Source: Bacillota bacterium
GTDB taxonomy: Bacteria; Bacillota; Clostridia; Peptostreptococcales; Anaerovoracaceae
Assembly: GCA_041836105.1 (NCBI GenBank)
Contig: JBGYKY010000016.1
Location: 1-37,289, forward strand
DNA length: 37,289 bases
Direction: 5' to 3'
Both the position numbers and the translations under genes were made by a program. Shown piece by piece: positions 1 through 35,691 of this stretch. How positions within the stretch are numbered: the first letter of the stretch is position 1; each line of letters opens with the position of its first letter. The notes under the pieces were generated by a model. That model saw only the letters and a program-made list of their open reading frames with translations. It ran no database searches and was not told the origin of the DNA.

Positions 1-2746
1 CGGAGAAAAACGCGATCCGATGATTTTCCGGGTACTGAAACCCGCCGTGGAGGATGGAATAGTCGGAAATAAACCGATACAGGTGGTTCAGCGCCGCAGC
101 ATTGTTGAAAAATTCCAGATGGGATTCCTCCCGCTCCGTTATCAGTGTCAGCATCTTCTTGTAGATCAACCAGAAAAGCGTGTTTTTCTCCTCCGGATCC
201 AAGCTGTCGGCGCCGAAGAGGTACTTTCCGATCACGTGAAAGGCCTCCTGGCTGACCAGGGGGTCATAGTTGGCCAATCCTCGAAGAAGGAGCCCTGCCA
301 GCAGCTCCCTGCGCCCGGAAAACGCAAGTTGATCTTCATAAAACCTATTTTTGTAAACCGGATAATGAGTCAAGAGCACACCGATAGTGTTGAGGGTCAC
401 GGAAGCGATCCTTTCATTTCGGCTTTCCAACAGCTTTCCCAGGTGAGCGATCAGCTCGTCCAGCTCATTGGGATGGAGGAAAAGCGCGATCTCCCCTAAA
501 TACTCCGGAATATACTTGGAAAACTGATATTCCCCGATCTCCAGACCCTTGGTCAGCTCGATGACGATCTCGTTTCGCTGGTCCAGGGTCAGCAGACCGA
601 TGGCATACGTTAGCCCCTTCCCTGCGGAATGGCGCACCGTCACACGCTCACTGACCTTCAACAGATTGGACAGGTGGGTAGCGATGTGGAGGGTTTCCTC
701 CCGTCGCCCCAGGCGGAGCCGCTCCAGCAGGTATTCAATGTTGACGGCCTTAATAATCCAGGGGGTGCCCACCTTCAGGTTTTCTAAAAACAGATCGGAA
801 GCAGATTCTCCTGTCCCATACATCCGGCTTCGCATTTTTTCCAGCTCCTCCGGCAAATAGTCCATCCGGGAAAGGATCTGATATTTAAGGTAGAGGCTCC
901 CTGTGTAGACCTCCGGCAAGGCCAGGGTCGTCTGGAGGATCTGTTCCGCCAGCTTTGGCGGGATTTTTTCCGCGGGGAAGCTCTTAACGTAGTGCTCCAA
1001 TACCCGGAGAATACCCAGATGGATTTCATCGGAAGTGCGGCCGTTCAGGGAGAAGCAGAACTCCAGGAGGATTCGCTGCTCCTCTCCGGTACAGTCCTGA
1101 AGGGGCAGATACAGCATAGAATCCAGGAGGATAAAGGCGGTGGGATCGTCCAGAATACCACGGCGATAAAACCCGACGATCATCTCCAGATATTTCCTTC
1201 GCTCTGCCTTCGGTACCCGGTTTAACAAGGTGTTGATTATGATCTTCCAGGTGTACCCGATCCATCGCCGATGATTTTCCGTGACCTTGTGCTCGGGGAA
1301 AACAATTCGGCTGAAGTACTCCTCGCACAGCTCTGCGGCGCTTATTTCGCCGCTGATAGGCTTTACCCCGCTGGGGAGCTCCTTTCGGTATTCTTCGTCG
1401 AAGTGGGCTAGGAGCATACCCATCAGCTCTGCCGCCAGACGGCGGATGTCCCCCTCCCGGTGCATCAGTAGCTCATAGAGAAAGTTCATGGTCATGACCT
1501 TCTGCCGCTGGGTCATGTAGGTGAAATATTCATAGAAAATGTTGATATAGGATCGAACCTGCTTCCACTGCTTTTCCGAGCGAGCCGCTTCCAGCAGATC
1601 GCCGAACGCCACCTCGTCATTAAACAGCTTCATGACAGAGATGTTGTGCTCAATGGCCAGATCCTTCAGCCGCCGGATGGCGCCTTCGCTGTTCAGGAGC
1701 GGTTCAAAGGTCCTGGATGCGGGGCGGAGAACCGGATCCTCCGGGTCGGTGCTGACTCCCAGTCCCTTCATATATTCTTCAAAATCCTTCAGCTTGGCAT
1801 ACACCCGTTCGTAGCGCTTCCGCTTGGCATCGTCCACGTTGTCCAGCTTGCGGAGGATGACGTGGAAGGACTCATCCAGGGTATAGATCCGGATCTCTTC
1901 TTTTCCCTGAGCATCCCGTCCGCCTTTGACCCGAAAATCCGCATAAATCAGTACCAGCGACTCCACCGAAAGGTTTTCCAGCTCCAGATCCCAGGTGGAA
2001 TGATTGGTGGCGATGTGGCCGATAATGGGCATAAGGTTGGTCTTGAAAAACAGATCCGTGTAGTAATAGTGTAGATAGGGAATCCGCTGATTTTCCGAAT
2101 CCCGGCAACCAAACTTTCCGATATCGTGCCCAGCGGCCGCACCGGACACCAGGGCTTTATCAATAGGTACACCGGCCTGGCTCAACTGACGTCCGATGGC
2201 TACGGCGATCCGGTGAACTCCGTTGATGTGCCCAAGAATATTGTAGCCGGTCACTTCGCCGTATAGCAGCATAAACTCGTTGAGATAATGCTGCTCCCAG
2301 TATTGGGTCAGCCGCTGATATTCTCCGCGCCCGCTGCAAAGAGCCACTTCCTCTGAATCCAAAAACCGGATCTGTTCCTCGCCGCCCGGAACGGAACAGC
2401 CGGGCAGGGCTAAAAAAGTTCGGATGGCCTGCAGGATGACGTGACGAGCCAGGCGTCCCTCCCGGCTTTCCTGCACTCCTTTTTCTCCCGGGAAGAGCTG
2501 CCCCAGGGTCGCGTCCAGCACATATCTGGCCCAGCCCTGCTTCGGCTCGGGCGCAATGCGCTTTAGCAATGGAAAAAGAGCCCGGATCAGATCCTCACAG
2601 CAAAGGATCCGATCCGGCCCCAGGTCCGGAAGCCGCCCTGCCGCCTTCTCTTCGGTCAGCAGCTCTGACATCTGTTTTTTTGTAATGCTGTTTGCCTTTA
2701 AGAATTTCCTGCCCAGCAGGTCTCGCACAATGGGTTCAATGATCAT
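1..2746 (-). CDS. Very large HD-domain metal-dependent phosphohydrolase with a long helical-repeat (HEAT/ARM-like) C-terminal region. Partial: the C-terminus lies beyond the window start (>915 aa)
   Basis: Absent from the ORF track because it has no in-window stop. My manual minus-strand translation from ATG 2746-2744 stays open down to base 2. It reads MIIEPIVRDLLGRKFL...GYNILGHINGVHRIAVAIGRQL...AAAGHDIGKF (H-D at 2123-2128)...IGHIATNHSTWD...LIYADFRVK, which fits the H..HD..H..D signature. All listed minus ORFs in 1-2700 are short and in other frames. Confidence 0.8.
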   Translation of the reverse strand, partial: MIIEPIVRDLLGRKFLKANSITKKQMSELLTEEKAAGRLPDLGPDRILCCEDLIRALFPLLKRIAPEPKQGWARYVLDATLGQLFPGEKGVQESREGRLARHVILQAIRTFLALPGCSVPGGEEQIRFLDSEEVALCSGRGEYQRLTQYWEQHYLNEFMLLYGEVTGYNILGHINGVHRIAVAIGRQLSQAGVPIDKALVSGAAAGHDIGKFGCRDSENQRIPYLHYYYTDLFFKTNLMPIIGHIATNHSTWDLELENLSVESLVLIYADFRVKGGRDAQGKEEIRIYTLDESFHVILRKLDNVDDAKRKRYERVYAKLKDFEEYMKGLGVSTDPEDPVLRPASRTFEPLLNSEGAIRRLKDLAIEHNISVMKLFNDEVAFGDLLEAARSEKQWKQVRSYINIFYEYFTYMTQRQKVMTMNFLYELLMHREGDIRRLAAELMGMLLAHFDEEYRKELPSGVKPISGEISAAELCEEYFSRIVFPEHKVTENHRRWIGYTWKIIINTLLNRVPKAERRKYLEMIVGFYRRGILDDPTAFILLDSMLYLPLQDCTGEEQRILLEFCFSLNGRTSDEIHLGILRVLEHYVKSFPAEKIPPKLAEQILQTTLALPEVYTGSLYLKYQILSRMDYLPEELEKMRSRMYGTGESASDLFLENLKVGTPWIIKAVNIEYLLERLRLGRREETLHIATHLSNLLKVSERVTVRHSAGKGLTYAIGLLTLDQRNEIVIELTKGLEIGEYQFSKYIPEYLGEIALFLHPNELDELIAHLGKLLESRNERIASVTLNTIGVLLTHYPVYKNRFYEDQLAFSGRRELLAGLLLRGLANYDPLVSQEAFHVIGKYLFGADSLDPEEKNTLFWLIYKKMLTLITEREESHLEFFNNAAALNHLYRFISDYSILHGGFQYPENHRIAFFS

Positions 2747-3065
2747 CCTCTACCTCTTCCAGCAGGACCCGGTCCAAGAAGGATCCTCTGGCCTCTCGTT
2801 TAATCAGCCGGAGATAGTCAATGTGCATCGGCTCGTACTCCTTAAGCTTCACCAGGCAATCCAGGGCCTCGTAAATATCAGCGATCTCCTCTTCATTGCC
2901 GCTGATTTGGTACTCCTTGATTTCTTCAATGATCTTTTCGATCAAGGCCTGCTCATACTCCTGCTCGCCCAGAATCCTGGAGACCTGCCTTCTCCCGCTT
3001 TCTTCAATCAACTGAGGGATGCGGTCTCGAACCAGCTTGTTGTACGATATCTTCACTTCGTCCAC
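2736..3065 (-). CDS. Small MazG/HisE-like all-alpha nucleoside-triphosphate pyrophosphohydrolase
   Basis: The N-terminus ISYNKLVRDRIPQLIE and the later EEIADIYEAL are typical of predicted house-cleaning NTP pyrophosphatases. AGGAGG (reverse complement of 3066-3071) abuts the GTG at 3065, so the GTG at 3056 (8-nt spacing, MKISYNKL...) is the likelier start. The TGA stop at 2736-2738 overlaps the HD-gene ATG by 11 nt. Confidence 0.75.
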   Translation of the reverse strand: MDEVKISYNKLVRDRIPQLIEESGRRQVSRILGEQEYEQALIEKIIEEIKEYQISGNEEEIADIYEALDCLVKLKEYEPMHIDYLRLIKREARGSFLDRVLLEEVEDDH

Positions 3066-3093
3066 CTCCTGTCTATCTCGCCGCTATACTTTT

Positions 3094-3121
3094 ATTATAT
3101 AAAATCTGCGGATATTTACAA
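3094..3121 (-). promoter_or_regulatory. Sigma-A-like promoter for the MazG-like/HD operon (TTGTAA-16 nt-TATAAT)
   Basis: On the minus strand, -35 TTGTAA is the reverse complement of 3116-3121 and -10 TATAAT is the reverse complement of 3094-3099. This lies about 30 nt upstream of the start. Confidence 0.5.
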
Positions 3122-3161
3122 GCCATCCCTTCTCCCTGTTTTTTTATTTTCATTTTTCCTC

Positions 3162-3190
3162 TTGACATTAATAGTCACGTAGACTATACT
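3162..3190 (+). promoter_or_regulatory. Sigma-A-like promoter of the nrtR/NAD operon (TTGACA-17 nt-TATACT)
   Basis: Perfect -35 TTGACA at 3162-3167, a 17-nt spacer, and -10 TATACT at 3185-3190. Confidence 0.65.
3169..3189. promoter_or_regulatory. Candidate NrtR operator 1 (palindrome ATAGTC-ACGTA-GACTAT with a GT-N7-AC core)
   Basis: The arms at 3171-3176 and 3182-3187 are perfect 6-nt inverted repeats. GT at 3174-3175 and AC at 3183-3184 are separated by 7 nt, which matches the published NrtR core. The site sits inside the spacer and -10 of the promoter. Confidence 0.55.
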
Positions 3191-3196
3191 GTGTTT

Positions 3197-3217
3197 AAAT
3201 AGTTTAATTGACCATTA
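3197..3217. promoter_or_regulatory. Candidate NrtR operator 2 (AAATAGT-TTAATTG-ACCATTA)
   Basis: GT at 3202-3203 and AC at 3211-3212 are spaced by 7 nt. The half-sites AAATAGT and TAATGGT (reverse complement) match in 5 of 7 positions and resemble the operator 1 half-site TAATAGT. The site lies just downstream of the -10. Confidence 0.4.
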
Positions 3218-3303
3218 TTGCTTTCAGCCCGCCCGGCAGAAGCTGCCGCTTCCCTTGGGATCCGCGGGAAAACAGGGTCCTTTCATGAAAGGTGGTAAAC
3301 AAA

Positions 3304-4050
3304 ATGAACACGGAAGAAAAATTCTTACGGGAGTATCGGGAACAGGATTACGAAAAGCTTTCCTGCACCACCGATATCCTGATTTTTACCATCGGCCGGG
3401 AGCATCAGCTGCAGGTGCTGCTGAAAAAGCGGCGGCAGCTTCCCTTTCGGGGGCGGTGGGCTCTGCCCGGCGGAGTCGTAGGCATCAGGGAGTCTCTGGA
3501 AGACTCAGCCCGGCGGGTGCTTTTGGAAAAAACCGGGCTGTCCCGGCTTCATCTGGAGCAGCTGTACACCTTTGGCCAGCCGGACCGGGACTCCCGAATG
3601 CGTTTCGTCAGCGCTGCGTGTCTGGCCCTGCTGCCCTGAAATTCCCATCCGGCGCTGGAAGAGGACTCCGCTTTTTTCTCTGTCCGGCGCCAGGGGTCGG
3701 AATGGGTCCTGCAGGGAAGCGAGCCGCTCTCTCCGGCGGATCTGGCCTTTGATCACCGGCACATCCTCCAGACCGCCCTGGAGAGAATAAGCGGCAAGCT
3801 GCACTATTCGGATATCGGGCTCCGATTGGTGCAGGATCCGAACAGATTCACCATTTTCGAGCTGCAAAAGGTTTTTGAGGCCATTGAAAACAAAAGCTAC
3901 GATGTCCCCAACTTTCGCCGCTACTTTAAAAATCGGTACGAAAGCACCGGCATTGCCGAAAAGACGCCGGAGGTTTCCACGGAGCTTTCCAAACGTCCCA
4001 GCAGCTATTACCGGCTGACGGCCCCCCTGTTTAGCGGGGAGCATGCATAA
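3304..4050 (+). pseudogene. nrtR: NrtR-family regulator (N-terminal Nudix-like domain plus C-terminal winged-helix) interrupted by one in-frame TGA at 3637-3639
   Basis: Track ORFs 3292..3639 and 3826..4050 are in the same frame. My translation across the gap reads ...FVSAACLALLP*NSHPALEEDSAFFSVRRQGSEWVLQGSEPLSPADLAFDHRHILQTALERISGKLHYSDIGLRLVQDPNRFTIFELQKVFEAI...NFRRYF..., with no other stop. The Nudix-fold region is GRWALPGGVVGIRESLEDSARRVLLEKTG. The likely start is ATG 3304 (SD AAGGTGG 8 nt upstream). Confidence 0.8.
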
Positions 4051-4064
4051 AGGAGGAATCTGCC

Positions 4065-4616
4065 ATGAAAAAGAAGCTGTTGCTGGTTATTGATATGCAA
4101 AAGGATTTTATCACCGGCCCCCTGGGCAACGATGCATGCCGCGCCGTTGTTCCCCGTGTCATACGGCGCATGGAAGAGGCGCGGGCGAAGGGATGGCAGA
4201 TCCTTTGCACCCGGGATATCCACGAGGAAAACTATCTGAGCACCGGCGAAGGAAGGCGACTGCCGGTCCCTCACTGCCTCCGGGGCAGTCGGGGCTCAGA
4301 GCTGATCGACGAAATCCGGGCGCTTGAGGAAAGCTGGGCGGACCGGGAGCAGGTCTTTCTTCCCATCCACCCCCTGGAAAAAAGCGCCTTTGGCAGCTTG
4401 AAGCTTCCACAGCTTTTGGGCGCCGAAGAATGGGAGGAGATCCAGCTGGTCGGCGTCTGCACCGATATCTGTGTTCTGTCCAATGCCATCATCCTTCGTT
4501 CTGCCTACCCGGAGGCAGAGATCACCGTCCTCTCCGACTGCTGCGCCGGCGTCACCGGAGAGAGTCACCGGGTTGCGCTGCAGGCCATGGCAGGATGTCA
4601 GATCCGCATACTTTAA
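4065..4616 (+). CDS. pncA: Isochorismatase-family cysteine hydrolase, nicotinamidase-like
   Basis: LLVIDMQKDF, a conserved Lys context (EKSAFGS) and the catalytic Cys in GVCTDICV. SD AAAGGAGGA precedes the start. It begins 14 nt after the nrtR stop. Confidence 0.75.
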   Translation: MKKKLLLVIDMQKDFITGPLGNDACRAVVPRVIRRMEEARAKGWQILCTRDIHEENYLSTGEGRRLPVPHCLRGSRGSELIDEIRALEESWADREQVFLPIHPLEKSAFGSLKLPQLLGAEEWEEIQLVGVCTDICVLSNAIILRSAYPEAEITVLSDCCAGVTGESHRVALQAMAGCQIRIL

Positions 4617-4637
4617 GCACCGGCAGGAGGAATCGCC

Positions 4638-5462
4638 ATGATTTTTGTAAACCATAAGCCCATCGACAAAAAGCAGTTCCCCGACGGAACCTTTCTCCTG
4701 CACTGCCCGGAAGCCTCGGAAGAGGTCCGACTGGAATGGCGCTATGAGGAGGATGGCGAGCTGTTTCAGCTTATCTGCCTGACCAGGCATCTGCAAAATG
4801 TGCCGGGAAGAAGGCTGATCCTTTCCCTTCCTTATCTCCCCAATGCCCGCATGGATCGGGTCCATGCCGACGATGAGGTGTTTACCCTGAAGCATTTCTG
4901 CCGAACGATCAACGATCTCGGTTTTGATCGGGTGGAGGTGCTGGATGCCCACTCCACCGTGGGACTGGCCCTGTTGGATCGGGTACGGGCGCTCTCCCCG
5001 GCTCCTTATCTGGAGCAGGTGCTCCTGCAGCTGGACCGTCTCCACGGAAAGGTCCTGCTGTATTTCCCCGATGAAGGAGCCTATAAGCGGTACCAGCCCA
5101 TGCTCCCTGAGCGGCCCTGCTGCTACGGACGAAAAAAAAGGGACTGGAATACCGGCACGATTACCGGTCTGGAGGTGGCCGATAACGGGAATCCCCCGGA
5201 GGGTGCCGCCGTACTGATGGTGGACGATATCTGCAGCTATGGCGGGACCTTCTACTACAGCGCCTTAGCGCTCAAGGAGCGAGGCGCCGCTGCCCTTTAC
5301 TCCTTCGCCACCCATACGGAAATGAGCCTACTGGAGGAAAAAAGCAACTATCTGTCGTTGCTGAAGGACGGTTCGGTCCTCCGGCACTTCACCACCGCCA
5401 GCCTCTACACTGGTCGCCTGGAATCCATTGAAGTGGTTTCCCCGAATCCCGACGCATACTGA
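4638..5462 (+). CDS. Divergent ribose-phosphate pyrophosphokinase (Prs)-family protein, 274 aa
   Basis: Prs-like motifs are present in altered form: FPDGT, PYLPNARMDR (canonical Prs has YARQDR), VLDAHS, a GRKKRD loop, and the PRPP-type loop VLMVDDICSYGGT. SD AGGAGGA precedes the start. Confidence 0.75.
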   Translation: MIFVNHKPIDKKQFPDGTFLLHCPEASEEVRLEWRYEEDGELFQLICLTRHLQNVPGRRLILSLPYLPNARMDRVHADDEVFTLKHFCRTINDLGFDRVEVLDAHSTVGLALLDRVRALSPAPYLEQVLLQLDRLHGKVLLYFPDEGAYKRYQPMLPERPCCYGRKKRDWNTGTITGLEVADNGNPPEGAAVLMVDDICSYGGTFYYSALALKERGAAALYSFATHTEMSLLEEKSNYLSLLKDGSVLRHFTTASLYTGRLESIEVVSPNPDAY

Positions 5463-5476
5463 AAGGAGAGCCTCCC

Positions 5477-6946
5477 ATGAAAAAGACCCATCCCCTGCTC
5501 CTGATCGATTTTTACAAAGCGGTTCATTCGGATATGCTCCCCGCGGGCATTACCAAATCCGTTTCCTACTTTACCCCTCGCATGAGCCGGGTGGATCAGT
5601 GGCCCTCGGTCGTGATGTTCGGCCTGCAGGCCTTCATTAAAACCTACCTGATCGACTACTTCAACGAAGAGTTTTTTAAAAAGGACTTGGAAGAGGTGGT
5701 CCATGAGTACCGCCGTGTTCTGGATGCTGCGCTGGGCAGAGGCGTTTACTCCTGCGAGAGGGTCTCTCATCTCCATCGCCTGGGGTATCTTCCCATCGAA
5801 ATTATCGCCCTGCCGGAGGGAACCCGGGTCCCCATGCGCCTGCCCATGTTTGGCATTACCAACACCCATAACGATTTTGCCTGGCTGCCCCAGGCTCTGG
5901 AAAGCCTGCTTTCCGCTGAGCTGTGGCACCCCATGATCAGCGCTACGGTGGGCGCCTCCTATCGGGATATCGTCAACGAGTACGCAGAGAAAACCTGTGA
6001 TGCTGCCGTGGCTCCGGCCCGATTGCTGGGGGATTTCTCCTTCCGCGGTCAGGAGTGTCTCCAGTCTGCCGTCAAAAGCTCCGCCGGCTTCTGCCTGTCT
6101 TTTCTGAACACGGCAACGGTTCCGGTCATCCCCTTTCTGGAGGAAAACTACAACTGCGACTGCCAGCGGGAGCCGGTGGCCTTTGGCAGCCCCAGCACCG
6201 AGCACAGCGTCATGTGCAGCAACTATGCGGTGGATGGCGATGAAATCACCCTGCTGCGAAGGCTTCTCCGGGAGATTTATCCTCATAACAGCTTTTCCGT
6301 GGTGCTGGATTCTTACGATTACTGGAACGTCATCGACAATATCCTCCCTCAGCTGAAGGATGAAATCCTGGCCCACGACGGCTGCATGCTGATGCGAGGG
6401 GACTCGGGGGACTGCGCGGAGGTGGTGACCGAAACCGTCTTTCGCCTGTGGAAGCTGTTTGGCGGCACGGTCAACAGCAAGGGATACAAGGTGCTGGATC
6501 CTCATGTAAAGGCGATTTACGGGGACAGCATCACCCTGACTCGCTGCCGACGGATCTATGAAATCCTGGAAGCAAACGGATTCGCCATTTCCAATGTTGC
6601 CCTGGGTGTTGGAAGCTTTTCTATGCAGTGCATTGAGGAAGGAGACCAGCTAAAGCCCTTTACCCGGGATACCTTTTCCTTTGCCGTCAAAGCCACCTAC
6701 ATGGAAATCAGCGGAAAGCCCTACCCCATTTTCAAAAACCCCCGGGAGAGCGGCTTTAAAACCAGCCAAAAGGGGTGCTGTATCGTTTGGGAGAAGGAGG
6801 GAAAGTTGACCTACGAGGACGGGTATTCCTGGGCAGGGTCGCAGGTACCGGGCAATCGGCTGGAGAGCATTTTCCGTGACGGGCTCCTCCTGAAGCAGCA
6901 AACCCTGTCTGAAATCCGTGAAATCCTGCACGGCGGGAAATTCTGA
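5477..6946 (+). CDS. nadV: Nicotinamide phosphoribosyltransferase (NAMPT/NadV) family protein
   Basis: LLLIDFYKAVH (compare NAMPT DSYK.sH), PSTEHSVM (the EHS histidine motif), MRGDSGD and AIYGDSIT. 489 aa. SD AAAGGAGAG precedes the start. Confidence 0.8.
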   Translation: MKKTHPLLLIDFYKAVHSDMLPAGITKSVSYFTPRMSRVDQWPSVVMFGLQAFIKTYLIDYFNEEFFKKDLEEVVHEYRRVLDAALGRGVYSCERVSHLHRLGYLPIEIIALPEGTRVPMRLPMFGITNTHNDFAWLPQALESLLSAELWHPMISATVGASYRDIVNEYAEKTCDAAVAPARLLGDFSFRGQECLQSAVKSSAGFCLSFLNTATVPVIPFLEENYNCDCQREPVAFGSPSTEHSVMCSNYAVDGDEITLLRRLLREIYPHNSFSVVLDSYDYWNVIDNILPQLKDEILAHDGCMLMRGDSGDCAEVVTETVFRLWKLFGGTVNSKGYKVLDPHVKAIYGDSITLTRCRRIYEILEANGFAISNVALGVGSFSMQCIEEGDQLKPFTRDTFSFAVKATYMEISGKPYPIFKNPRESGFKTSQKGCCIVWEKEGKLTYEDGYSWAGSQVPGNRLESIFRDGLLLKQQTLSEIREILHGGKF

Positions 6947-7076: not shown

Positions 7077-7826
7077 ATGGAAGCCAAAGTATTTCAAGCG
7101 GAAAAGGTTACCGAAGACTGCATTTGCTGGATTCGGGAATGGTTTGAGGAAAACGGCCGGGGATGCAGCGCCGTCGTCGGTATCTCCGGAGGGAAGGATT
7201 CCTCTCTGGTCGCCGCTCTCTGCGCCCGGGCCCTGGGCGCAGAGAGGGTCATCGGGGTACTGATGCCGGAAGGCACCCAAAAAGACATCGACGCCGCGCA
7301 CCTGCTCTGCAGGCATCTTGGCATCGAGTCTCTTGTTATTAACATCGGAGAAGCGGTCCGGCAGGTCAAAAACGCCGTGACGACGGCTCTGGGTCAAGAG
7401 CTGTCGTCACAATCTGTCATCAACCTGCCCCCCCGAATCCGCATGTCAGTGCTTTACGCCGTATCCCAAACCCGAAACGGCCGGGTAGCCAATACCTGCA
7501 ATCTGAGCGAAGATTGGGTCGGCTATTCCACCCGGTACGGGGATGCCGCCGGAGACTTCTCTCCCCTGGCACACTTGACGGTACAGGAGATCAAGCAGAT
7601 GGGCCGCGTCCTGGGGCTTCCCCCGGAGCTGATCGAAAAGGTCCCCAGCGACGGGCTTACCGGGAAGTCCGATGAGGAAAACCTGGGGTTCACCTATCAG
7701 GAGCTGGATCAATACATCCGGGAGGGCGTGATTGAGGATCCGGCTCACCGAGAAAGGATTGATGCCCTCCATCAAAGGAACCTCTTCAAGCTTCGTCCCA
7801 TCCCCTTTTTTCCCTACGAGGGGTAA
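7077..7826 (+). CDS. nadE: Ammonia-dependent NAD+ synthetase
   Basis: PP-loop VVGISGGKDSSLVAAL. The size (249 aa) and the C-terminal region match NadE. Confidence 0.9.
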   Translation: MEAKVFQAEKVTEDCICWIREWFEENGRGCSAVVGISGGKDSSLVAALCARALGAERVIGVLMPEGTQKDIDAAHLLCRHLGIESLVINIGEAVRQVKNAVTTALGQELSSQSVINLPPRIRMSVLYAVSQTRNGRVANTCNLSEDWVGYSTRYGDAAGDFSPLAHLTVQEIKQMGRVLGLPPELIEKVPSDGLTGKSDEENLGFTYQELDQYIREGVIEDPAHRERIDALHQRNLFKLRPIPFFPYEG

Positions 7827-29324: not shown

Positions 29325-29486
29325 ATGGAAGACAGAACACTTACGTGCCAGGATTGCGGTTCGGAATTCGTCTTTACCGCAGGCGAACAGGAATTCTACA
29401 AGGAAAAGGGCTTCGATAACGAACCGAAGCGATGTAAGGAATGCAGAGACAAGAAGAAGGCCGAACGAAGACAATTCCAGGGATAG
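29325..29486 (+). CDS. Small zinc-ribbon protein (53 aa), below the ORF-track size cut-off
   Basis: My manual translation reads MEDRTLTCQDCGSEFVFTAGEQEFYKEKGFDNEPKRCKECRDKKKAERRQFQG*. It has CxxC...CxxC and the FxF.AGEQEFY..KGF...PKRC pattern of a widespread zinc-ribbon family. SD GGAGGA lies 5 nt upstream, with a promoter and a terminator flanking the gene. Confidence 0.8.
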   Translation: MEDRTLTCQDCGSEFVFTAGEQEFYKEKGFDNEPKRCKECRDKKKAERRQFQG

Positions 29487-29512: not shown

Positions 29513-29543
29513 AAAGAACCGTACTATCCAGTACGGTTCTTTT
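29513..29543. terminator. Bidirectional rho-independent terminator
   Basis: A 13-bp stem, AAAGAACCGTACT-ATCC-AGTACGGTTCTTT, followed by T. It has an A-tract on the left and a T-tract on the right. It ends the zinc-ribbon gene (+) and contains the stop of the last tad-operon gene (-). Confidence 0.75.
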
Positions 29544-30084
29544 GGATCCATCCGCAGACGGTCAGCTCTCGAAGAAGCTGAACCACCATGCGTCGCAGCT
29601 TCACCACGCCGGGATTCTCGCGTTCGATCCGATCTGCAAGCATTTGCAAATAATCGGCGGCAATGGGATCCCGATTCAGGGCAAGGAACTCCTCGATCAG
29701 CTGCGTCAGCATTACCCTGCGCTCCCTGGGCGCCGACGGGCGATAGAGCAAACATACCTCCTGCTCGTCTTCGGTTTCAGTGGACGCCCAGATGGTTTGC
29801 CGGTCCCATCGCATCTCTCCGGGATCCAGCAGGTATTCCTGACACAGAGCCATTTTTCCCAGCAGCCGATCCAGCAGGCTCAACTGCTCCGGCAACGTCG
29901 GTGCCCGCCGCTCCATCCATTGCTCCAGAGGCAGGAACCCTTCCGTTTCCGCCACCCATTCCTCCCCTGAAGCTTCACATCTCCCTTCATTCTCATCGTT
30001 CCGCTCGGCCCTGTGCAAAAGACTGCCGGGCAAAAAGATGCGCCCCCGATTTTCCAGAACGATTCTTGCCTGATATTCCTTCAT
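29524..30084 (-). CDS. Hypothetical cytoplasmic protein (186 aa), last gene of the Tad-like operon
   Basis: SD GAGGGGAG lies 5 nt upstream of ATG 30084, 12 nt after the upstream stop. The protein is acidic and has no TM segment. The LLDPGEMRWDRQTIW...VCLLYRP pattern is the only motif-like stretch I can point to. Confidence 0.6.
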   Translation of the reverse strand: MKEYQARIVLENRGRIFLPGSLLHRAERNDENEGRCEASGEEWVAETEGFLPLEQWMERRAPTLPEQLSLLDRLLGKMALCQEYLLDPGEMRWDRQTIWASTETEDEQEVCLLYRPSAPRERRVMLTQLIEEFLALNRDPIAADYLQMLADRIERENPGVVKLRRMVVQLLRELTVCGWIQKNRTG

Positions 30085-30096
30085 CCTGACTCCCCT

Positions 30097-30864
30097 CTAT
30101 CCGGAGCCGCCGCACAGACGGCACGGCGTATACCCCTGCGCTTCCGCCGACTCCTGATCAATTTCGATAACATATCTGGTAACCAACGAGCAGGCCTTCT
30201 GGTGATAGACCTCTCCGGCCCTGGGGAAGCAATATACCAGGCTTCCATTGCCCCTTTTCTCCGGCCGGCAGTGACTGCACGGCCGGTATCGGGTGCGGAC
30301 GGAGGTCGTGAGGATCGTCTGATGGGGAAAGACCTCGATAACGCTGCAGGTCCTCTCGTGGTAACGCTCTCCCGCTTTGGGGAACACCCATACCATCCTG
30401 CTTTCTTTTTTTTCCTCCAGCTCCTTAGGATCCATGGCATCCCCCCGGTATTTCCGACCTACAAAAGGCCGAAATCGCACCGACTCCTTCCCCGCCACTC
30501 CTTCATAAATCTGTATGGGGAACGGGATTTTCTGGTAGTATTTCCCCTCGTAATGAACCACCTGGTCGGTCAGCCGTGTCTGAAGGGGATAAAGGAACAG
30601 TCGATGGCGATAAAACTCCGTCTCCAAATGGCTTTGGGAGAGGCGGTGAGAAACGACCAGAGGGTAGGTGATCGACAGGTCCGCTGCGACGGACTGCCGG
30701 ATCTGGATCCTGGCTTCCCGGCAAAGCTGATAGAGAATCGCCTCCTGCAGATAGACGAATTTCATCAGGTATGCGACAGTCAGAATCCCTATCAGAAATA
30801 TGGGAAGGAACAACGATGCTTCTAAAGTGATCCCTCCCTCCTGCCTCTTAATATTCCTTTTCAT
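30097..30864 (-). CDS. TadE-like pseudopilin with two C-terminal H/C3 zinc-ribbon repeats
   Basis: The N-terminus MKRNIKRQEGGITLEASLFLPIFLIGILTV gives a G-xxxx-E prepilin-like motif followed by a hydrophobic helix. The C-terminus carries the repeats FPKAGERYHERTCS...YRPCSHC and FPRAGEVYHQKACS...YTPCRLC. ATG 30864 is preferred over the TTG at 30903. Confidence 0.7.
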   Translation of the reverse strand: MKRNIKRQEGGITLEASLFLPIFLIGILTVAYLMKFVYLQEAILYQLCREARIQIRQSVAADLSITYPLVVSHRLSQSHLETEFYRHRLFLYPLQTRLTDQVVHYEGKYYQKIPFPIQIYEGVAGKESVRFRPFVGRKYRGDAMDPKELEEKKESRMVWVFPKAGERYHERTCSVIEVFPHQTILTTSVRTRYRPCSHCRPEKRGNGSLVYCFPRAGEVYHQKACSLVTRYVIEIDQESAEAQGYTPCRLCGGSG

Positions 30865-32089
30865 AGGAATACGCCTTTCCGCTGACCGTTGCCACGAAGG
30901 CAAATCCCTTGCACCGGCTGGACATGGTAAAATTTCGATCGCACTCCAGCTTCATATTGATCTGAATGAGATCCATCATGCGGAGCAGCTTTTTTTCGTG
31001 GTTGGCCAGGTATAGGAACAGCTCCAGGTGCTCGGCATAGTTTTTCCCGGCCCGCACCGAAGGATAAATGGCTCCGCCCTCCTGCCGGTGAAGGTTTTCG
31101 ATGGAAAGCGCCCAGTGAACGCTCTGCTTGAGAAGAGGTACCGTTCCTCCTTCATTTAAAATCTTTCGATCATTGATGGCTTCAGAAAGCGCCCAGGCAG
31201 CGGTCAGCGTCGCCAGAGCCGCCGGTGCGCCGGGACCCGGCGCTACCGTATTTGCCAGAGCGGTCAGCTCCTTCATCTTTGCTGCGTCGCTGAGGATATG
31301 CGCCAGGTTCAGAGCGGTTCGCAGCGCAGTAAAATCGTTGAGAAACCGGTTTTTGTTTTCCCAGTCACTGTCGGCTCCGTACAGCAGATATTCCATCTCA
31401 TTCCTGAAAAAAGCCGGGGCCTCCGGTAGCTTGGACTCCTTATCGTGACTAAAGTAGTGCTTGGCGTATTCATTGGCTAAGTAATAGCGATGCGCTTTGG
31501 TGACCATGTTCCCCAGCTGCTCGGGAGAAAACTCCAGGATTGCCTGGGTCACCAGGCTCAGGTTCCCTTTTCCTCCCGACGGCAGCGTTTTAAGAACATT
31601 TTTGTTTTTAAGCTTCCGCTGCGGACGCTGATCGCTTCCCTTCGCTGCTTCCGGCATCGAGCGCAGCGCATTTCCCGCCAGTCGGAGCACCATAATCTCT
31701 GCCAGCTCGTCCTCAAATCTCTGGCAGTCGAGCAGGCTGTAGGGCGCCAGAGATACCTCTATCGACTGAAGATCATTGCGAAGCAAATCCATGGGGCGCT
31801 TGTTCCGAAAGGTGGTATTTCCATACATGCGGATCAGGGCTTCGATTTCCTCTTCGCTCCTTCCGTGGGCAATGATCCCATATCTCCGATATAGATCCAG
31901 GTCATATTCCCCCAGCACGGACAGTGCGGCCAGACGAAATACCGAATCAGCCGTGCTTTCCGCCGCTTTTTGGGCAGCCGCCTGGACAAAGGTCAATGTC
32001 ATGACCATCATGGATCCCAGGATGAGAGTTAGAAAAACGGCGGAAAACCCATTTTGTCCAGTGCGTGTGGTTTTCTTTTGCCCACTCAT
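30848..32089 (-). CDS. Large TadG-like pilus-associated protein (about 413 aa)
   Basis: An N-terminal hydrophobic segment, GFSAVFLTLILGSMMVMTLTFV, is followed by a large soluble domain. ATG 32089 overlaps the upstream TGA (ATGA) and lies 8 nt after AAGGA. The track ORF starts at 32098. Confidence 0.65.
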   Translation of the reverse strand: MSGQKKTTRTGQNGFSAVFLTLILGSMMVMTLTFVQAAAQKAAESTADSVFRLAALSVLGEYDLDLYRRYGIIAHGRSEEEIEALIRMYGNTTFRNKRPMDLLRNDLQSIEVSLAPYSLLDCQRFEDELAEIMVLRLAGNALRSMPEAAKGSDQRPQRKLKNKNVLKTLPSGGKGNLSLVTQAILEFSPEQLGNMVTKAHRYYLANEYAKHYFSHDKESKLPEAPAFFRNEMEYLLYGADSDWENKNRFLNDFTALRTALNLAHILSDAAKMKELTALANTVAPGPGAPAALATLTAAWALSEAINDRKILNEGGTVPLLKQSVHWALSIENLHRQEGGAIYPSVRAGKNYAEHLELFLYLANHEKKLLRMMDLIQINMKLECDRNFTMSSRCKGFAFVATVSGKAYSYEKEY

Positions 32090-32307
32090 TCTATCCATCC
32101 TTTCACAAAATCCGCCAATCTCAGCGCAGTGCCCATATCCTCCGGTTCCGCCTCCCGAACCATCTCTCGCCGATGCTCCTGGTATCGCAGGGTGGTCTTA
32201 TCGTATAACGCCGCGATCACGCCGATGAGCAGGACCAATGCAAGCAAAACCAGCGGAATCACCAGAGAAGCTTCTACGATAGCGGAACCGCGGGTTTTGC
32301 CGCTCAA
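32086..32307 (-). CDS. Small TadE-like pseudopilin (about 73 aa)
   Basis: SGKTRGSAIVEASLVIPLVLLALVLLIGV shows the classical TadE N-terminus with G-SAIVE (Glu at +5). The only in-frame start outside the flp coding region is TTG 32307, which overlaps the flp TGA (TTGA). The 152-aa track ORF overlaps flp out of frame. Confidence 0.55.
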   Translation of the reverse strand: MSGKTRGSAIVEASLVIPLVLLALVLLIGVIAALYDKTTLRYQEHRREMVREAEPEDMGTALRLADFVKGWIE

Positions 32308-32489
32308 AACCCGCTGCTCATCAGCTTGGAAAATATTCCATCGACAAAGGCGGTAATCTGACTTCGGAAGATGAGCGCCAGCCCGATGGCAATGCTCACC
32401 AACAGGGCGACCTGCACCATTTCCATTCCCTTTTGATTTTGATACCTTCTCGATCGACAGATTTCCTTTGTTGATTTCACTGTTCGCAT
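32304..32489 (-). CDS. flp: Flp-family type IVb pilin precursor
   Basis: ...RRYQNQKG|MEMVQVALLVSIAIGLALIFRSQITAF is a short protein with a basic leader, a Gly, and then a hydrophobic helix. The ORF is open to 32513, but AGGAG 7 nt upstream favours ATG 32489 (MRTVKS...). Confidence 0.7.
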   Translation of the reverse strand: MRTVKSTKEICRSRRYQNQKGMEMVQVALLVSIAIGLALIFRSQITAFVDGIFSKLMSSGF

Positions 32490-32577
32490 CTTCATGCTCC
32501 TTTCCATGTTCATTCCTGCTTTCCTTTCTTGTTCTCTTTTTCACTCTCTACCTCCCGTTTTCTGCCTTGCAATAGTT

Positions 32578-33696
32578 CTATGAGGAAAGTATTGCCGGTG
32601 CGATAGCCACGGCTATCAGAACCAGCAGATACAGACAGAGTGGCATGGTTAGCCGTGTTTCCTTGACCCGGATCTCTTCCTCCAGCTTTTTGCGATGCCG
32701 GTGCATCAGATCGTTCCGCTCCGTCAGTAGCTTTTCAGACAACCGGATTCCCCGATGCAGATTATCCCGAATGATCCCTGCGATCCGGATGAAGTCTGCA
32801 TCGTCGATGCGCCTGGCAAACGCTGCCAGCTGTGCATCCAGCGGATCTTTGGTTTCCAGGTATCGCAGTCGGATCATCTCCAACTGCCGGTAGAAATATG
32901 AGGTCTCTTTTTTCTTCATTTCATTGCGGAGAATGTCCAGAAAAGCCGTTTCAAATATGGCGCCCGCGTTAAGCTGCAGTACCAGTTGATTGATGAATAG
33001 GGGCAGCTCCTTTTGCACTGTGGACCGGGCGCTCCGGAATTCTCCGTTCAGACTTACGTATCTGGCACGATAGAGGAGAACGGCGATGAAAAGCGTTCCT
33101 GTCAGAAGATAGACGGGATCCCTGCGACTGCTTTGCGACCATCGAACAAACTCCCCCTCTTCCGTATAGAGGGGCAACATCAGGACCTTTCCTTCTCCTT
33201 CGGCAGCGTCCCGCAGTCGGATATCCAACTCTCGTCGCAGCCTTTGTGCAGCCTCTCCATCTCCGGCAGCCTGTCCCTTCCGGCCTGTCCCCTCATGATC
33301 TTTTCCTTGCCCGGCTGCCGGAATTCGAATGGAAATCTGCGCCTTCATCTCCCTGCCCTCCTGCTGGACCGCAGCGGTCAAATCTTCCCGAAGAACCCCC
33401 TGATCCGGCCGCAGGATCCCCACCAGCGTCTTTTCACCTTCCTCCTCGTAAAGAAAGTGCTGATGCTGTCTCCCGGCAGTGATCCCCGTCACAAGAATCA
33501 GCATCGTCACAGCGATCAGAGCAGTCGTCAATCTTTTTTTATTCTTTTGGATATCCTGCCGGGCCTTTTCCTCCTGCCGTGTACCGTACAGGCATCGGTA
33601 CCGGCTCTCCAAATAATCCGGATCACCGCAAATCCCGCGGAGTATCCTGTTCGCTCCTTTTTGCAACGTCGATTTTACTGTGCCATGCCCTCTCAT
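32578..33696 (-). CDS. TadC-like type II secretion system F-family membrane protein with a long non-homologous N-terminal half
   Basis: The C-terminal region LPLFINQLVLQLNAGAIFETAF...RLTMPLCLYLLVLIAVAIAP is T2SSF-like. ATG 33696 overlaps the tadB-like TGA (ATGA). The track ORF extension to 33987 lies inside the upstream gene. Confidence 0.7.
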   Translation of the reverse strand: MRGHGTVKSTLQKGANRILRGICGDPDYLESRYRCLYGTRQEEKARQDIQKNKKRLTTALIAVTMLILVTGITAGRQHQHFLYEEEGEKTLVGILRPDQGVLREDLTAAVQQEGREMKAQISIRIPAAGQGKDHEGTGRKGQAAGDGEAAQRLRRELDIRLRDAAEGEGKVLMLPLYTEEGEFVRWSQSSRRDPVYLLTGTLFIAVLLYRARYVSLNGEFRSARSTVQKELPLFINQLVLQLNAGAIFETAFLDILRNEMKKKETSYFYRQLEMIRLRYLETKDPLDAQLAAFARRIDDADFIRIAGIIRDNLHRGIRLSEKLLTERNDLMHRHRKKLEEEIRVKETRLTMPLCLYLLVLIAVAIAPAILSS

Positions 33697-34442
33697 GCCT
33701 GCACCTCCATGATCCGATCCGACCAATAATACCCCGCTCCGATAGCCAGGAGCGCCAGGGTCATAATCAAGGCCCCGGCTCCGGTCTGATACAGGGGCTG
33801 TAAGTATTCCGGTGAAGTGATTCGCAGGAAAAACAGTACCAGCACCGGCATCAGGCTGATCATTCTGGCTTCTGATCTTTTTTGTGCGCTGAGCACCTGC
33901 AATTCCTGATGAAGCTTCATTTTGTCCGAAATAATCTGACAGGTCAGGCGAATGGCCTGCTCCATGTCCCCGCCCGTTCTGCGGCAAACGGAATAGGAAC
34001 GGACAAAATCCTTCAGATCCTCCAATGGGGATTCGTCGGCCAGCCTTTCCAGCAGCAGAATATCAGCCTCCCGACTGTTTTTCCGATCCGCTACCAGCTT
34101 TTCCAGCCCAGCAATAAGCTCCGTTTTCCGATGATGATGGAGCAACAGGCGGGCCAGGGATTCCTCCGTACCTTCTTCCATAGACCGCCCGCTTTCAATG
34201 GAAGCGGCCAGCGTCTGCAAAAATTCCAGGAACTGGCCCTGCTGACGCTGCAGCTCTTTTCTGACGGCCATCTGCCGAAAGACAGCCCAAAGAGCACCGG
34301 TCAGCACCACACTTCCTACAGCGGCCACAACCGGCCTGTTATAAAAAAGGGTCAGCACTGCCGCCCAGCATAAAATGGAAAGCACCCCATATTGGATATC
34401 ACTGCCGGCTACACGCCGAGGCATCCGGGAAAGAAGCTTCAT
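33693..34442 (-). CDS. TadB-like type II secretion system F-family membrane protein
   Basis: Three TM regions flank a helical cytoplasmic domain (LQTLAASIESGRSMEEG..., ARMISLMPVLVLFFL). The ATG overlaps the cpaF TGA (ATGA). Confidence 0.7.
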   Translation of the reverse strand: MKLLSRMPRRVAGSDIQYGVLSILCWAAVLTLFYNRPVVAAVGSVVLTGALWAVFRQMAVRKELQRQQGQFLEFLQTLAASIESGRSMEEGTEESLARLLLHHHRKTELIAGLEKLVADRKNSREADILLLERLADESPLEDLKDFVRSYSVCRRTGGDMEQAIRLTCQIISDKMKLHQELQVLSAQKRSEARMISLMPVLVLFFLRITSPEYLQPLYQTGAGALIMTLALLAIGAGYYWSDRIMEVQA

Positions 34443-35635
34443 GATCTTCCTCCGTTCATTTCAAGCTTTCGGATATTTTTTAGAGGATTTCCCGTAGCGA
34501 CCAAGCCATTATTTATGTCATAAATAAATAATTTATTTAGCGAAATCCGATCCTGCTCCAGCCCTGTAATTTCCGCAATCTCCATGACCACCCTCCGCTG
34601 ATCTGCCATGCGCCCCAGATGGACCATCAGGTCAATGCCCTCCGCGAGCTGCCCCCGAATAGCCGGGATCGGGTAATCTGCCGCCTGAAGAAACATGGCC
34701 TCCAGGCGGTACAGCATCCCTTCGGGAGAATTGCCATGACCTGTAGATAAGCTGCCGTCATGCCCCGTATTCATAGCCTGGATCATATCGACTACCTCAC
34801 TGCCCCGAACCTCCCCTACCACAATCCGGTCCGGACGCATTCGCAGACTGGCCCGGATCAGTTGATTCATCTCGATCTGCCCCTTCCCCTGTGCATTGGC
34901 AGTCCGGCACTCCAAACGAACCAGATTGCGGGTCGGATCCAGCTGAAGCTCTGCAGAGTCTTCAATGACGATGATCCGATCCTTCCGCGGGATGTAATCG
35001 GATAGAATATTCAGGAAAGTGGTCTTGCCGGATGAGGTACCGCCGCTGATAAAAATGTTGTATCCGGCCCGCACCATTTGCCTTAAAAACTCAGCGGCTT
35101 CCCGGGTGACGGTTCCGCTACGGATGAGGTGTTCCATGGTCAGCGCCTGCCGGGGAAATTTGCGAATGGTTAAAACCGGACCATCCAACGCCACATTGCT
35201 GTATACGGCATTGACTCGGGAGCCGTCCGGCAGCCGGGCATCCAAAATAGGGGTGCGCTCGTTGATTTCCCGGTGGACACGTGCGCCAATCCGCCGTATG
35301 ACCTCGTGAAGCTCCTGTGCATTCATAAAATTCAGCTCTGTTTTTTCAGTGTGACCACGCCTTTCAATGTAAATGGAATCCGTACCGTTTACCATGATTT
35401 CCGAGATGCTGTCATCGGCGATCAGCGGTTCCAAAATCCCCATATCCCGCCTCAATGTGCAGAAGATCTGATTGACGATGCGCACCTTCATTTTGAAATG
35501 GGTTTCCGCCAGCTCCGGGTCCCGAAGCACCATCTCCTCGGCCAGCTCTGCTACCTGCTGATCCGAAATGACCTCTCCCGCCTGCTGTATCTGCTTCCGT
35601 ACTTCTTCGGTAATGCGAAGAATAATGTGATTCAT
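34439..35635 (-). CDS. cpaF: CpaF/TadA-family secretion ATPase (T2SS/T4P/T4SS ATPase superfamily)
   Basis: EIMVNG, Walker A ISGGTSSGKTTFLN, IVIEDSAEL, RMRPDRIVVGEVRG and TGHDGSLSTGH. Confidence 0.9.
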   Translation of the reverse strand: MNHIILRITEEVRKQIQQAGEVISDQQVAELAEEMVLRDPELAETHFKMKVRIVNQIFCTLRRDMGILEPLIADDSISEIMVNGTDSIYIERRGHTEKTELNFMNAQELHEVIRRIGARVHREINERTPILDARLPDGSRVNAVYSNVALDGPVLTIRKFPRQALTMEHLIRSGTVTREAAEFLRQMVRAGYNIFISGGTSSGKTTFLNILSDYIPRKDRIIVIEDSAELQLDPTRNLVRLECRTANAQGKGQIEMNQLIRASLRMRPDRIVVGEVRGSEVVDMIQAMNTGHDGSLSTGHGNSPEGMLYRLEAMFLQAADYPIPAIRGQLAEGIDLMVHLGRMADQRRVVMEIAEITGLEQDRISLNKLFIYDINNGLVATGNPLKNIRKLEMNGGRS

Positions 35636-35662
35636 GGCTTTATCCTTTTTACATTTTTTACC

Positions 35663-35691
35663 ATTATACCATAAAAAATATCGGCTGTAAA
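35663..35691 (-). promoter_or_regulatory. Promoter of the Tad-like operon (TTTACA-17-TATAAT with TGg extension)
   Basis: On the minus strand, -35 is the reverse complement of 35686-35691 and -10 is the reverse complement of 35663-35668, with TG at 35670-35671. It lies about 28 nt upstream of the cpaF ATG. Confidence 0.6.

Follow-up and report, generated by a model that had tools for sequence, protein, structure and literature searches.

The DNA analyzed here is contig JBGYKY010000016.1 of GenBank assembly GCA_041836105.1, from a Bacillota bacterium of the Anaerovoracaceae, and the whole 37,289-nucleotide stretch is called the window below. It carries eight open reading frames (ORFs), all intact and full length, that run head to tail on the minus strand from 35635 to 29524 and form a putative operon of the Tad/Flp pilus type. 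An earlier reading of the letters alone (the original prediction) had proposed such an eight-gene operon, and all eight ORFs were found on one strand where it had placed them. The genes and the sites that border them are as follows:

34439-35635, minus strand: cpaF/tadA, hexameric secretion ATPase, the motor
33693-34442, minus strand: tadB-like probable platform protein, 249 residues, four hydrophobic segments
32578-33696, minus strand: tadC-like probable platform protein, 372 residues, with a ~230-residue N-terminal extension
32304-32513, minus strand: flp, Flp1_like major pilin; possible starts at 32513, 32507, 32495 and 32489
32086-32307, minus strand: small TadE-like pseudopilin, 73 residues, TTG start
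30848-32089, minus strand: DUF5702 protein, 413 residues, occupying the TadG position
30097-30864, minus strand: TadE-like pseudopilin with putative zinc modules (Zn-module protein), 255 residues, two C-terminal His-Cys3 modules
29524-30084, minus strand: DUF6382 protein, 186 residues, isoelectric point 5.0, no transmembrane segment
35663..35691, minus strand: promoter-like site, TTTACA-17-TG-TATAAT
29513..29543, minus strand: terminator-like hairpin, overlapping the DUF6382 stop codon
35729..37275, minus strand: OmpR-type response regulator, truncated by the end of the window, and HisKA kinase, both identified by Pfam, directly upstream of cpaF and co-directional with it

The proposed chaining of the genes by ATGA and TTGA overlaps was read directly in the sequence. 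The cpaF/tadB and tadB/tadC junctions are ATGA overlaps, while the small tadE gene has a TTGA overlap with flp and an ATGA overlap with the DUF5702 gene. The DUF5702 and Zn-module genes overlap by 17 nt, the Zn-module and DUF6382 genes are 12 nt apart, and the sole real spacer lies between tadC and flp (64-82 nt, depending on the flp start). The tadE frame is also open across the whole flp gene (32086-32544, minus strand), forming a 152-residue ORF. Nearly all related loci have a TadE ORF that starts near the flp stop, with long upstream extensions in L070 and L076, and the 152-residue ORF is probably due to chance rather than a longer protein.

The predicted promoter was present, matching 11 of 12 consensus positions plus the TG extension, ~28 nt upstream of the cpaF ATG. 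It shares the top score of the scanned region, in which promoter-like sites show no overall enrichment (7 observed vs 6.3 expected), so the call rests on position and conservation. The related locus L145 has TTTACA-17-TAGAAT(TG) at the equivalent position before cpaF, despite a different upstream gene. At the other end, the predicted terminator is a stable hairpin with a 13-bp stem, in a 71-nt fold of -29.4 kcal/mol vs a mean of -14.4 for shuffled sequences (z = -5.4), and L145 has a hairpin at the equivalent position. The U-tract is weak, and for this reason the hairpin was not listed by a simple scan. The scan gave no terminator-like site between the upstream kinase gene and cpaF, so that read-through from the kinase gene may occur. 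Converging on the operon terminator from the other side is a gene for a 53-residue treble-clef zinc-finger protein (29325-29486, plus strand; zf_Tbcl, 3.2e-25), which L003 and L004 have retained in the same location; a similar small ORF is found there in L145.

The cpaF product matched the Pfam family T2SSE (3e-55). A PDB sequence search returned Caulobacter CpaF at 8.8e-82, vs 3.9e-43 for FlaI and 3e-26 for VirB11, which upheld its assignment to the CpaF clade. It has a Walker A motif, GGTSSGKTT, at residue 198, and the Asp, Walker B and His boxes are all present. The tadB-like product matched T2SSF at 2.4e-5 (24.7 bits, just under the 25.2 cut-off), and its orthologues in L006 and L007 also match this family weakly. 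Orthologues of the tadC-like product in L006, L007 and L089 carry recorded PF00482 matches; the one in L007 is 167 residues long, and the N-terminal extension therefore appears dispensable. By way of the PF00482 matches of the orthologues, a TadB/TadC platform is the probable assignment of this pair.

In one related lineage, from species ~65% identical to the window, the cpaF gene encodes only 115-133 residues (L003, 126-473; L004, 6728-7075; L005, 786-1187). There the motor gene seems to have been truncated, with the remaining seven cassette genes intact; the short cpaF of L004 is immediately preceded by two large DUF4379 genes.

The flp product matched the Pfam family Flp1_like (PF16982) at 1.2e-12, with 47.5 bits over a cut-off of 33.5; a PDB sequence search with it gave chance-level matches only. 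The protein has a basic leader followed by G|MEMVQVALLV..., and the predicted mature form is ~40 residues long. The start codon is uncertain; an NCBI-derived member of the same cluster has 67 residues. Across 78 loci, the consensus is (K/R/S)(K/R/S)G|MExVQV(A/G)(I/L)L..., with G at position -1 in 77 loci (A in the other one) and with M+1, E+2, V+4, Q+5 and V+6 invariant. The pilin thus departs from the canonical Flp motif G|xxxxEY, with Gln+5, Val+6 and Glu+2 in a context where the leader and Gly-1 are kept. The motif KG|MEMVQ had been noted in the original prediction as atypical; it is present, but the Gln5/Glu2 combination is a hallmark of the subtype and not an oddity of one gene. The invariant residues are encoded by several different codons (a mean of ~11 synonymous differences per 31 codons), and since the residues are fixed while the codons vary, the constraint acts on the protein. 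The comparison indicates strong purifying selection on the pilin.

Two other ways of reading the pilin N-terminus were considered and rejected. M+1 is not the true start codon, since it is always preceded by a basic leader in open frame with Gly or Ala at its end. Placing the cut so that Glu falls at +5 would require sites that are inconsistent from locus to locus.

Both TadV-type processing motifs that had been picked out in the pseudopilins, RG|SAIVE and G|GITLE, were present. The small TadE-like protein matched PF07811 at 6.2e-6 (26.7 bits, over the 22.9 cut-off), and its motif, in the form G/A/S|xxxxE/D, is present in 71 related loci. In the Zn-module protein the motif reads EG|GITLE, and G/A|xxxxE is found in 81/81 orthologues. 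This protein contains two repeats of YH..C ... PC..C, and 66 of the 81 orthologues have two YH..C and two CxxC motifs. H169, C173, C248 and C251 are invariant, and C196, C199, H221 and C225 are nearly so, a pattern that suggests metal binding. The only Pfam match was a weak one to Ada_Zn_binding (13 residues, E 0.003, below cut-off), and a PDB sequence search yielded no relative, only chance-level matches. With a CpaF-clade ATPase, a Flp1_like pilin and a TadE family match above cut-off, the identification of a Tad/Flp-type operon in a monoderm held up.

The 413-residue protein encoded after the small tadE gene had been called TadG-like. Instead, it belongs to DUF5702 (PF18960, 1.3e-45); at E <= 1, the Pfam scan returned this family and one chance-level match, with no TadG or Tad N-terminal family. 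Its AlphaFold2 model (predicted local distance difference test score, pLDDT, 83; predicted template modelling score, pTM, 0.79) has a 47-residue N-terminal helix (residues 13-59) followed by a mainly helical domain, and fold searches of the PDB and of the viral models in BFVD gave no match with E <= 0.001. Across 25 homologues, 27-66% identical to the window protein, 32 columns are invariant, including G14, which is not followed by a Glu at +5. The likeness to TadG is limited to the position in the operon and the N-terminal hydrophobic helix or anchor. A role as a wall hydrolase was also considered and was rejected, there being no match to a lysozyme-like fold.

The last gene had been taken for an acidic orphan. 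Its 186-residue product is in fact a member of DUF6382 (PF19909, 1.2e-7; 32.0 bits, over the 26.7 cut-off), a family that is the constant last gene of the cassette (80/89 of the sequences first compared). The AlphaFold2 model (pLDDT 91.7, pTM 0.86) had kinases and pseudokinases as all of its top Foldseek matches, with E-values of only 0.02-0.1; the best were the Rv3910 pseudokinase domain (probability 0.99, TM score 0.58), PRPK/Bud32 and Tribbles. Judging from the model, the protein likely has a protein-kinase-like fold. An alignment of 90 homologues has just two near-invariant positions, P19 and G49, and no conserved catalytic Lys or Asp (VAIK, HRD, DFG), so the protein is best read as a pseudokinase-like adaptor. 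It is probably cytoplasmic. DUF6382 comprises 1161 representative clusters in a large library, some with members fused to FHA domains, while word-indexed homologue searches returned only 5 and 8 proteins and a PDB sequence search gave chance-level matches only. In the literature searched, DUF6382 appears only in a paper on type VII secretion, and there was no mention of DUF5702 or "Flp1-like".

Relatives of the cassette were sought by a scan of one genome per species, and were found in at least 299 species-level genomes. The best 80 of these 299, from which the taxonomy was taken, are mostly Anaerovoracaceae and other "Family XIII" taxa; named carriers include Anaerovorax, Aminipila, Lentihominibacter, Ihubacter, Emergencia, Zhenpiania, Brotomerdimonas, Eubacterium pyruvativorans and Clostridium aminobutyricum. 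The closest relative among the matches was an Anaerovoracaceae metagenome-assembled genome with 66% identity. The original prediction had pointed to Oscillospiraceae and Lachnospiraceae for synteny; by the genome scan, the cassette proved to belong mostly to Anaerovoracaceae and their allies. At 90% identity, the window proteins do not cluster with any others, which points to a poorly sampled species, and exact look-ups of the kinase and DUF5702 proteins of the window returned only short Logan contigs.

DUF5702 homologues are at most 67% identical to that of the window, most of them ~30%, and their contigs show the same eight-gene order. When hidden Markov models (HMMs) built from four cassettes were searched against all loci, the exact order cpaF-tadB-tadC-flp-tadE-DUF5702-ZnR-DUF6382 was found in 58/88, and nearly all exceptions were contig ends. 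The same cassette recurs on metagenome contigs. The gene set after flp does differ from the textbook tadE-tadF-tadG, as had been pointed out, but it is a fixed cassette rather than a peculiarity of one genome. Downstream of the cassette, rarA is found in 38 loci and ispH-S1 in 31. These conserved flanks show that the locus is chromosomal and vertically inherited, and a mobile or conjugative locus was rejected, as the flanks are housekeeping genes. A gene for a small membrane protein with a SPOR domain (1.1e-10; L015, 13476-14072) occurs close to the cassette in 22 loci, in 21 of them on the downstream side, and is absent from the corresponding place in the window.

No ParA/CpaE turned up when all sizeable ORFs of the window were scanned against Pfam, in agreement with the absence of TadZ/CpaE that had been reported. 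In some loci, however, the gene directly upstream of cpaF belongs to a family with a receiver domain followed by a degenerate P-loop, and its profile matches Eubacterium rectale TadZ (3FKQ) at 3.9e-30, and ParA, MinD and FleN more weakly. Among 54 genome loci with enough upstream sequence, 25 had tadZ, which was next to cpaF in 14 of them and lay 2.5-6 kb upstream of it in the other 11; in the Gln5 subtype, to which the window belongs, it was present in 44/113 related loci. These matches place TadZ in the locus family. A gene for a homologue of ClpP-family proteases (CLP_protease, 8.7e-21) lies directly upstream of tadZ (L011, 1829-2644; L032, 52-732; L049, 771-1451); this gene family is found upstream of the cassette in 11 loci and may be an old neighbour.

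In the nearest relatives (L009, L010, L015 and L016), tadZ is followed by genes for a Na/Pi transporter, response regulator, histidine kinase and antiporter, and then by cpaF. The stretch between tadZ and cpaF in L009 (contig JBLJBD010000135.1, 74-6391) encodes a Na/Pi-type transporter, an OmpR-type regulator, a histidine kinase and a ~780-residue antiporter. In L145 (contig Ga0228536_1000085), this transporter-regulator-kinase-antiporter module (275-5899) extends to the end of the available sequence. The regulator-kinase pair also immediately precedes cpaF in the window, which lacks the antiporter and ends inside the regulator gene. Since this pair is shared with the nearest relatives, tadZ is expected a few kilobases beyond the window. 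Its absence is probably an effect of the window boundary, with the gene lying just past the end.

The same Pfam scans found no Peptidase_A24, secretin or SAF/CpaB in the window, as expected from the original prediction for the peptidase and the secretin. Genes for A24 prepilin peptidases were then sought by a motif screen and an HMM made from A24 proteins of a sister subtype, over ~10 kb on each side of the cassettes. The sister subtype, itself uncharacterised, came from distant DUF5702 loci, found by three look-ups and one metagenome scan, that carry a fuller operon: [A24]-tadZ-cpaF-tadB-tadC-Flp1_like-DUF5702-ZnR-A24-DUF6382+FHA. These loci (L090-L123, on human-gut and other metagenome contigs) have the same homologous gene order as the window, but differ in having one or two A24 genes in the operon, no small TadE between flp and DUF5702, and a DUF6382-FHA fusion of ~416-456 residues. 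Their pilin, G/A|xGxIE..., has the canonical Glu5, and its C-terminal half is plainly homologous to that of the window.

A24 genes were found in 0/113 loci of the Gln5 subtype and 19/23 of the Glu5 sister subtype, the small TadE in 107/113 and 0/23, respectively, and the median DUF6382 ORF was 184 vs 416 residues. In the four Glu5 loci lacking A24, the contig breaks off before the operon reaches that part. L089 has an intermediate form, with a Gln5 pilin, no A24 gene and the FHA domain kept. As the Gln5/A24 split follows clades, a single evolutionary event may underlie it, and it does not prove coupling statistically. Because the minor subunits keep Gly-1 and G|xxxxE, the simplest reading is that the peptidase is encoded elsewhere. 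The prediction that the locus has no peptidase of its own was thus borne out, but it is not a novelty, being already known in Gram-positive Bifidobacterium, where tadV always lies outside the Tad cluster and 12 species with Tad loci are reported to lack it altogether (PMC13091076). MSH loci also lack a peptidase, and peptidases can be, and commonly are, shared between systems (PMC6668835).

In our view the operon fairly likely codes for a reduced form of the Tad/Flp (type IVc) filament machine, in a monoderm Clostridium of the Anaerovoracaceae group, with a pilin that is processed in trans by an A24 peptidase. We infer the assembly of a filament, the processing in trans and the roles of the accessory proteins from homology with Tad systems. 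The CpaF hexameric ATPase would drive a membrane platform of the TadB-like and TadC-like proteins, which would lift the 40-residue, single-helix Flp1_like pilin from the membrane and polymerize it. Three membrane-anchored proteins, the small TadE, the DUF5702 protein and the His-Cys3 TadE-like protein, may prime or cap the filament, and the cytoplasmic DUF6382 protein may act as an adaptor or regulator at the base of the machine. The pilin and both TadE-like proteins, which have class III leaders ending in Gly, are most likely cut by an A24 peptidase encoded elsewhere. The inserted transporter and two-component module would have separated TadZ from cpaF in the lineage of the window.

Several observations weigh against this interpretation. 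The pilin has neither the Glu5 nor the Tyr6 that type IV and Flp pilins would be expected to show, no A24 gene was found in the ~10 kb searched on each side of the 113 Gln5-subtype cassettes, and the loss of the operon's own peptidase coincides with the change from Glu5 to Gln5. The match of the tadC-like product of the window to T2SSF is weak (residues 234-367, E 0.17). The DUF5702 and Zn-module proteins had no characterised relatives in the literature, PDB and fold searches. Finally, the shortening of cpaF to 115-133 residues in one related lineage shows that the cassette can decay.

The first of these points could mean that the machine is the same but that its maturation is independent of A24, the pilin being cut by some other protease or left uncut, with Glu+2 taking over the role of Glu5. 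The sharp difference in A24 content between the Gln5-type and Glu5-type loci fits this idea, as do the 12 Bifidobacterium species with Tad loci that lack tadV (PMC13091076), and the invariance of M+1, E+2 and Q+5 in 78 loci indicates that the change is fixed and selected. It is hard to see, however, why Gly or Ala at -1 and a canonical G|xxxxE in both TadE-like proteins would be kept if no prepilin peptidase acted on them. The subtypes also form two clades, so that the correlation may stem from a single event, and sharing of peptidases between systems is common (PMC6668835). We regard A24-independent maturation as quite improbable. A broader version, which we consider unlikely, is that the Gln5 subtype forms its own branch within the Tad systems, marked by an altered chemistry at the pilin N-terminus, Gln5 replacing Glu5 next to a fixed Glu+2, and that the peptidase and the FHA domain were lost alongside. 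If so, maturation or subunit registration would be unlike that in every type IV filament studied so far, and the stand-alone, pseudokinase-like DUF6382 protein would be a new cytoplasmic machine part.

The product might also be a short pseudopilus for DNA uptake or for protein export through the wall, and not a long adhesive pilus. The system is minimal, with one ATPase, a very small pilin and no CpaB/RcpC-type protein in the window or the annotated loci; one minor subunit has two His-Cys3 modules that look like those of Ada; and type IV filaments have repeatedly switched between adhesion, secretion and DNA uptake (PMC6668835). Yet the Ada-like match covers just 13 residues at an E-value below cut-off, and neither comEA/comEC-like genes nor candidate secreted substrates were seen in the cassette or its conserved flanks. 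The present data do not separate a long filament from a short one, and we consider the pseudopilus unlikely. A decaying remnant that makes no product, having lost its peptidase, the adjacent TadZ and the FHA domain, is very improbable. The A24 genes and FHA domain are indeed gone relative to the sister subtype, and the L003/L004/L005 lineage has its cut-down cpaF beside inserted DUF4379 genes. In the window, however, none of the eight ORFs is shortened and their start and stop codons are coupled, and more than 100 loci, with proteins only ~30% identical, retain this reduced set. The strong purifying selection on the pilin and the conservation of promoter and hairpin in one relative also argue against decay. 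We thus retain the reduced Tad/Flp machine with processing in trans as the preferred reading.

The locus is a Tad system by its motor, probable platform and pseudopilins. It departs from the canon in its pilin motif and in having neither a dedicated peptidase nor TadG, and it adds three uncharacterised components. With the Tad/Flp system of Aggregatibacter actinomycetemcomitans and the Cpa system of Caulobacter it shares a CpaF/TadA-clade ATPase, probably a split TadB/TadC platform, a very small helical pilin with a class III leader, TadE-type G|xxxxE pseudopilins and a TadZ homologue in the locus family. Unlike these systems, the operon in this monoderm has no secretin, RcpB/C or TadD, and no TadV in or near it; its pilin has Gln+5 and Val+6 instead of Glu-Tyr, plus Glu+2; and it has DUF5702 in place of TadG, a pseudopilin with two His-Cys3 modules and an added DUF6382 protein.

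A precedent in peptidase placement is the Tad cluster of Bifidobacterium breve UCC2003 and other bifidobacteria, which is likewise Gram-positive, chromosomal and vertical, with the peptidase gene outside or absent (PMC13091076). Those clusters are actinobacterial and differ from the window in that tadZ heads the cluster, the order is flp-tadE-tadF, and DUF5702, the Zn-module pseudopilin and DUF6382 are lacking. Imam et al. (2011) found tad operons to be most widespread in Clostridia, with variable content and some Flp-like pilins lacking Tyr6 (PMC3244431). Most of their loci contain tadV, unlike the window, and the cassette with DUF5702, Zn-module, DUF6382 and Gln5 pilin is not described there (PMC3244431). 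In 2024, another Tad-like cluster of Clostridia was reported from TANB77 (PMC11680825); it differs from the present one. No description of the present cassette or its accessory families was found in the literature searched.

For DUF6382 there are also parallels outside Tad systems. The DUF6382-FHA proteins TseJ and TsfJ are constant parts of type VII secretion variants (bioRxiv 10.1101/2024.01.30.577966), and the protein described here resembles them as a constant cytoplasmic component of a Gram-positive export machine. Rv3910, whose pseudokinase domain was solved bound to an FHA domain (that of FhaA), is among the best matches of the model. Unlike TseJ/TsfJ and Rv3910/FhaA, the DUF6382 protein of the window stands alone, with no FHA domain, in a Tad operon, and the Foldseek E-values of 0.02-0.1 are weak. 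The family would nevertheless link Tad systems to the DUF6382/FHA modules of type VII secretion.

Anaerovoracaceae and related Clostridia are common, poorly studied bacteria of the gut, rumen and digester, and nothing on their surface filaments was found in the literature searched. The cassette appears to be a core, vertically inherited surface-filament system of these Clostridia. It provides a natural test of the Glu5 requirement in type IV-like pilins, and brings in three accessory families without an assigned function (DUF5702, the two-module His-Cys3 pseudopilin and DUF6382). The "orphan" and "TadG-like" labels are corrected accordingly.

The sizeable ORFs elsewhere in the window are housekeeping genes, among them NAD salvage genes, a P-type ATPase gene, tgt/queA, spoIID, ruvABC, argR, recN, ispH-S1 and rarA. 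An Rfam scan of the window gave no matches, so no RNA family is involved. Positions 1-3200 hold only short overlapping ORFs on both strands, with a GC content slightly below that of the rest of the window and no Pfam or Rfam matches; this part could consist of degraded genes or be a poorly assembled contig end. Next to it, an NrtR-type regulator (3292-4050, plus strand) is split over two frames, with the NUDIX domain in 3292-3639 (1.7e-10) and the NrtR winged-helix domain in 3826-4050 (4.5e-12). This gene is either a frameshifted pseudogene or the result of a sequencing error. It adjoins the NAD salvage cluster, which consists of genes for an isochorismatase/nicotinamidase-like protein (4065-4616), a protein with a phosphoribosyltransferase domain (4638-5462, weak Pfam match), an NAPRTase-family protein (5477-6946) and NAD synthase (7077-7826).

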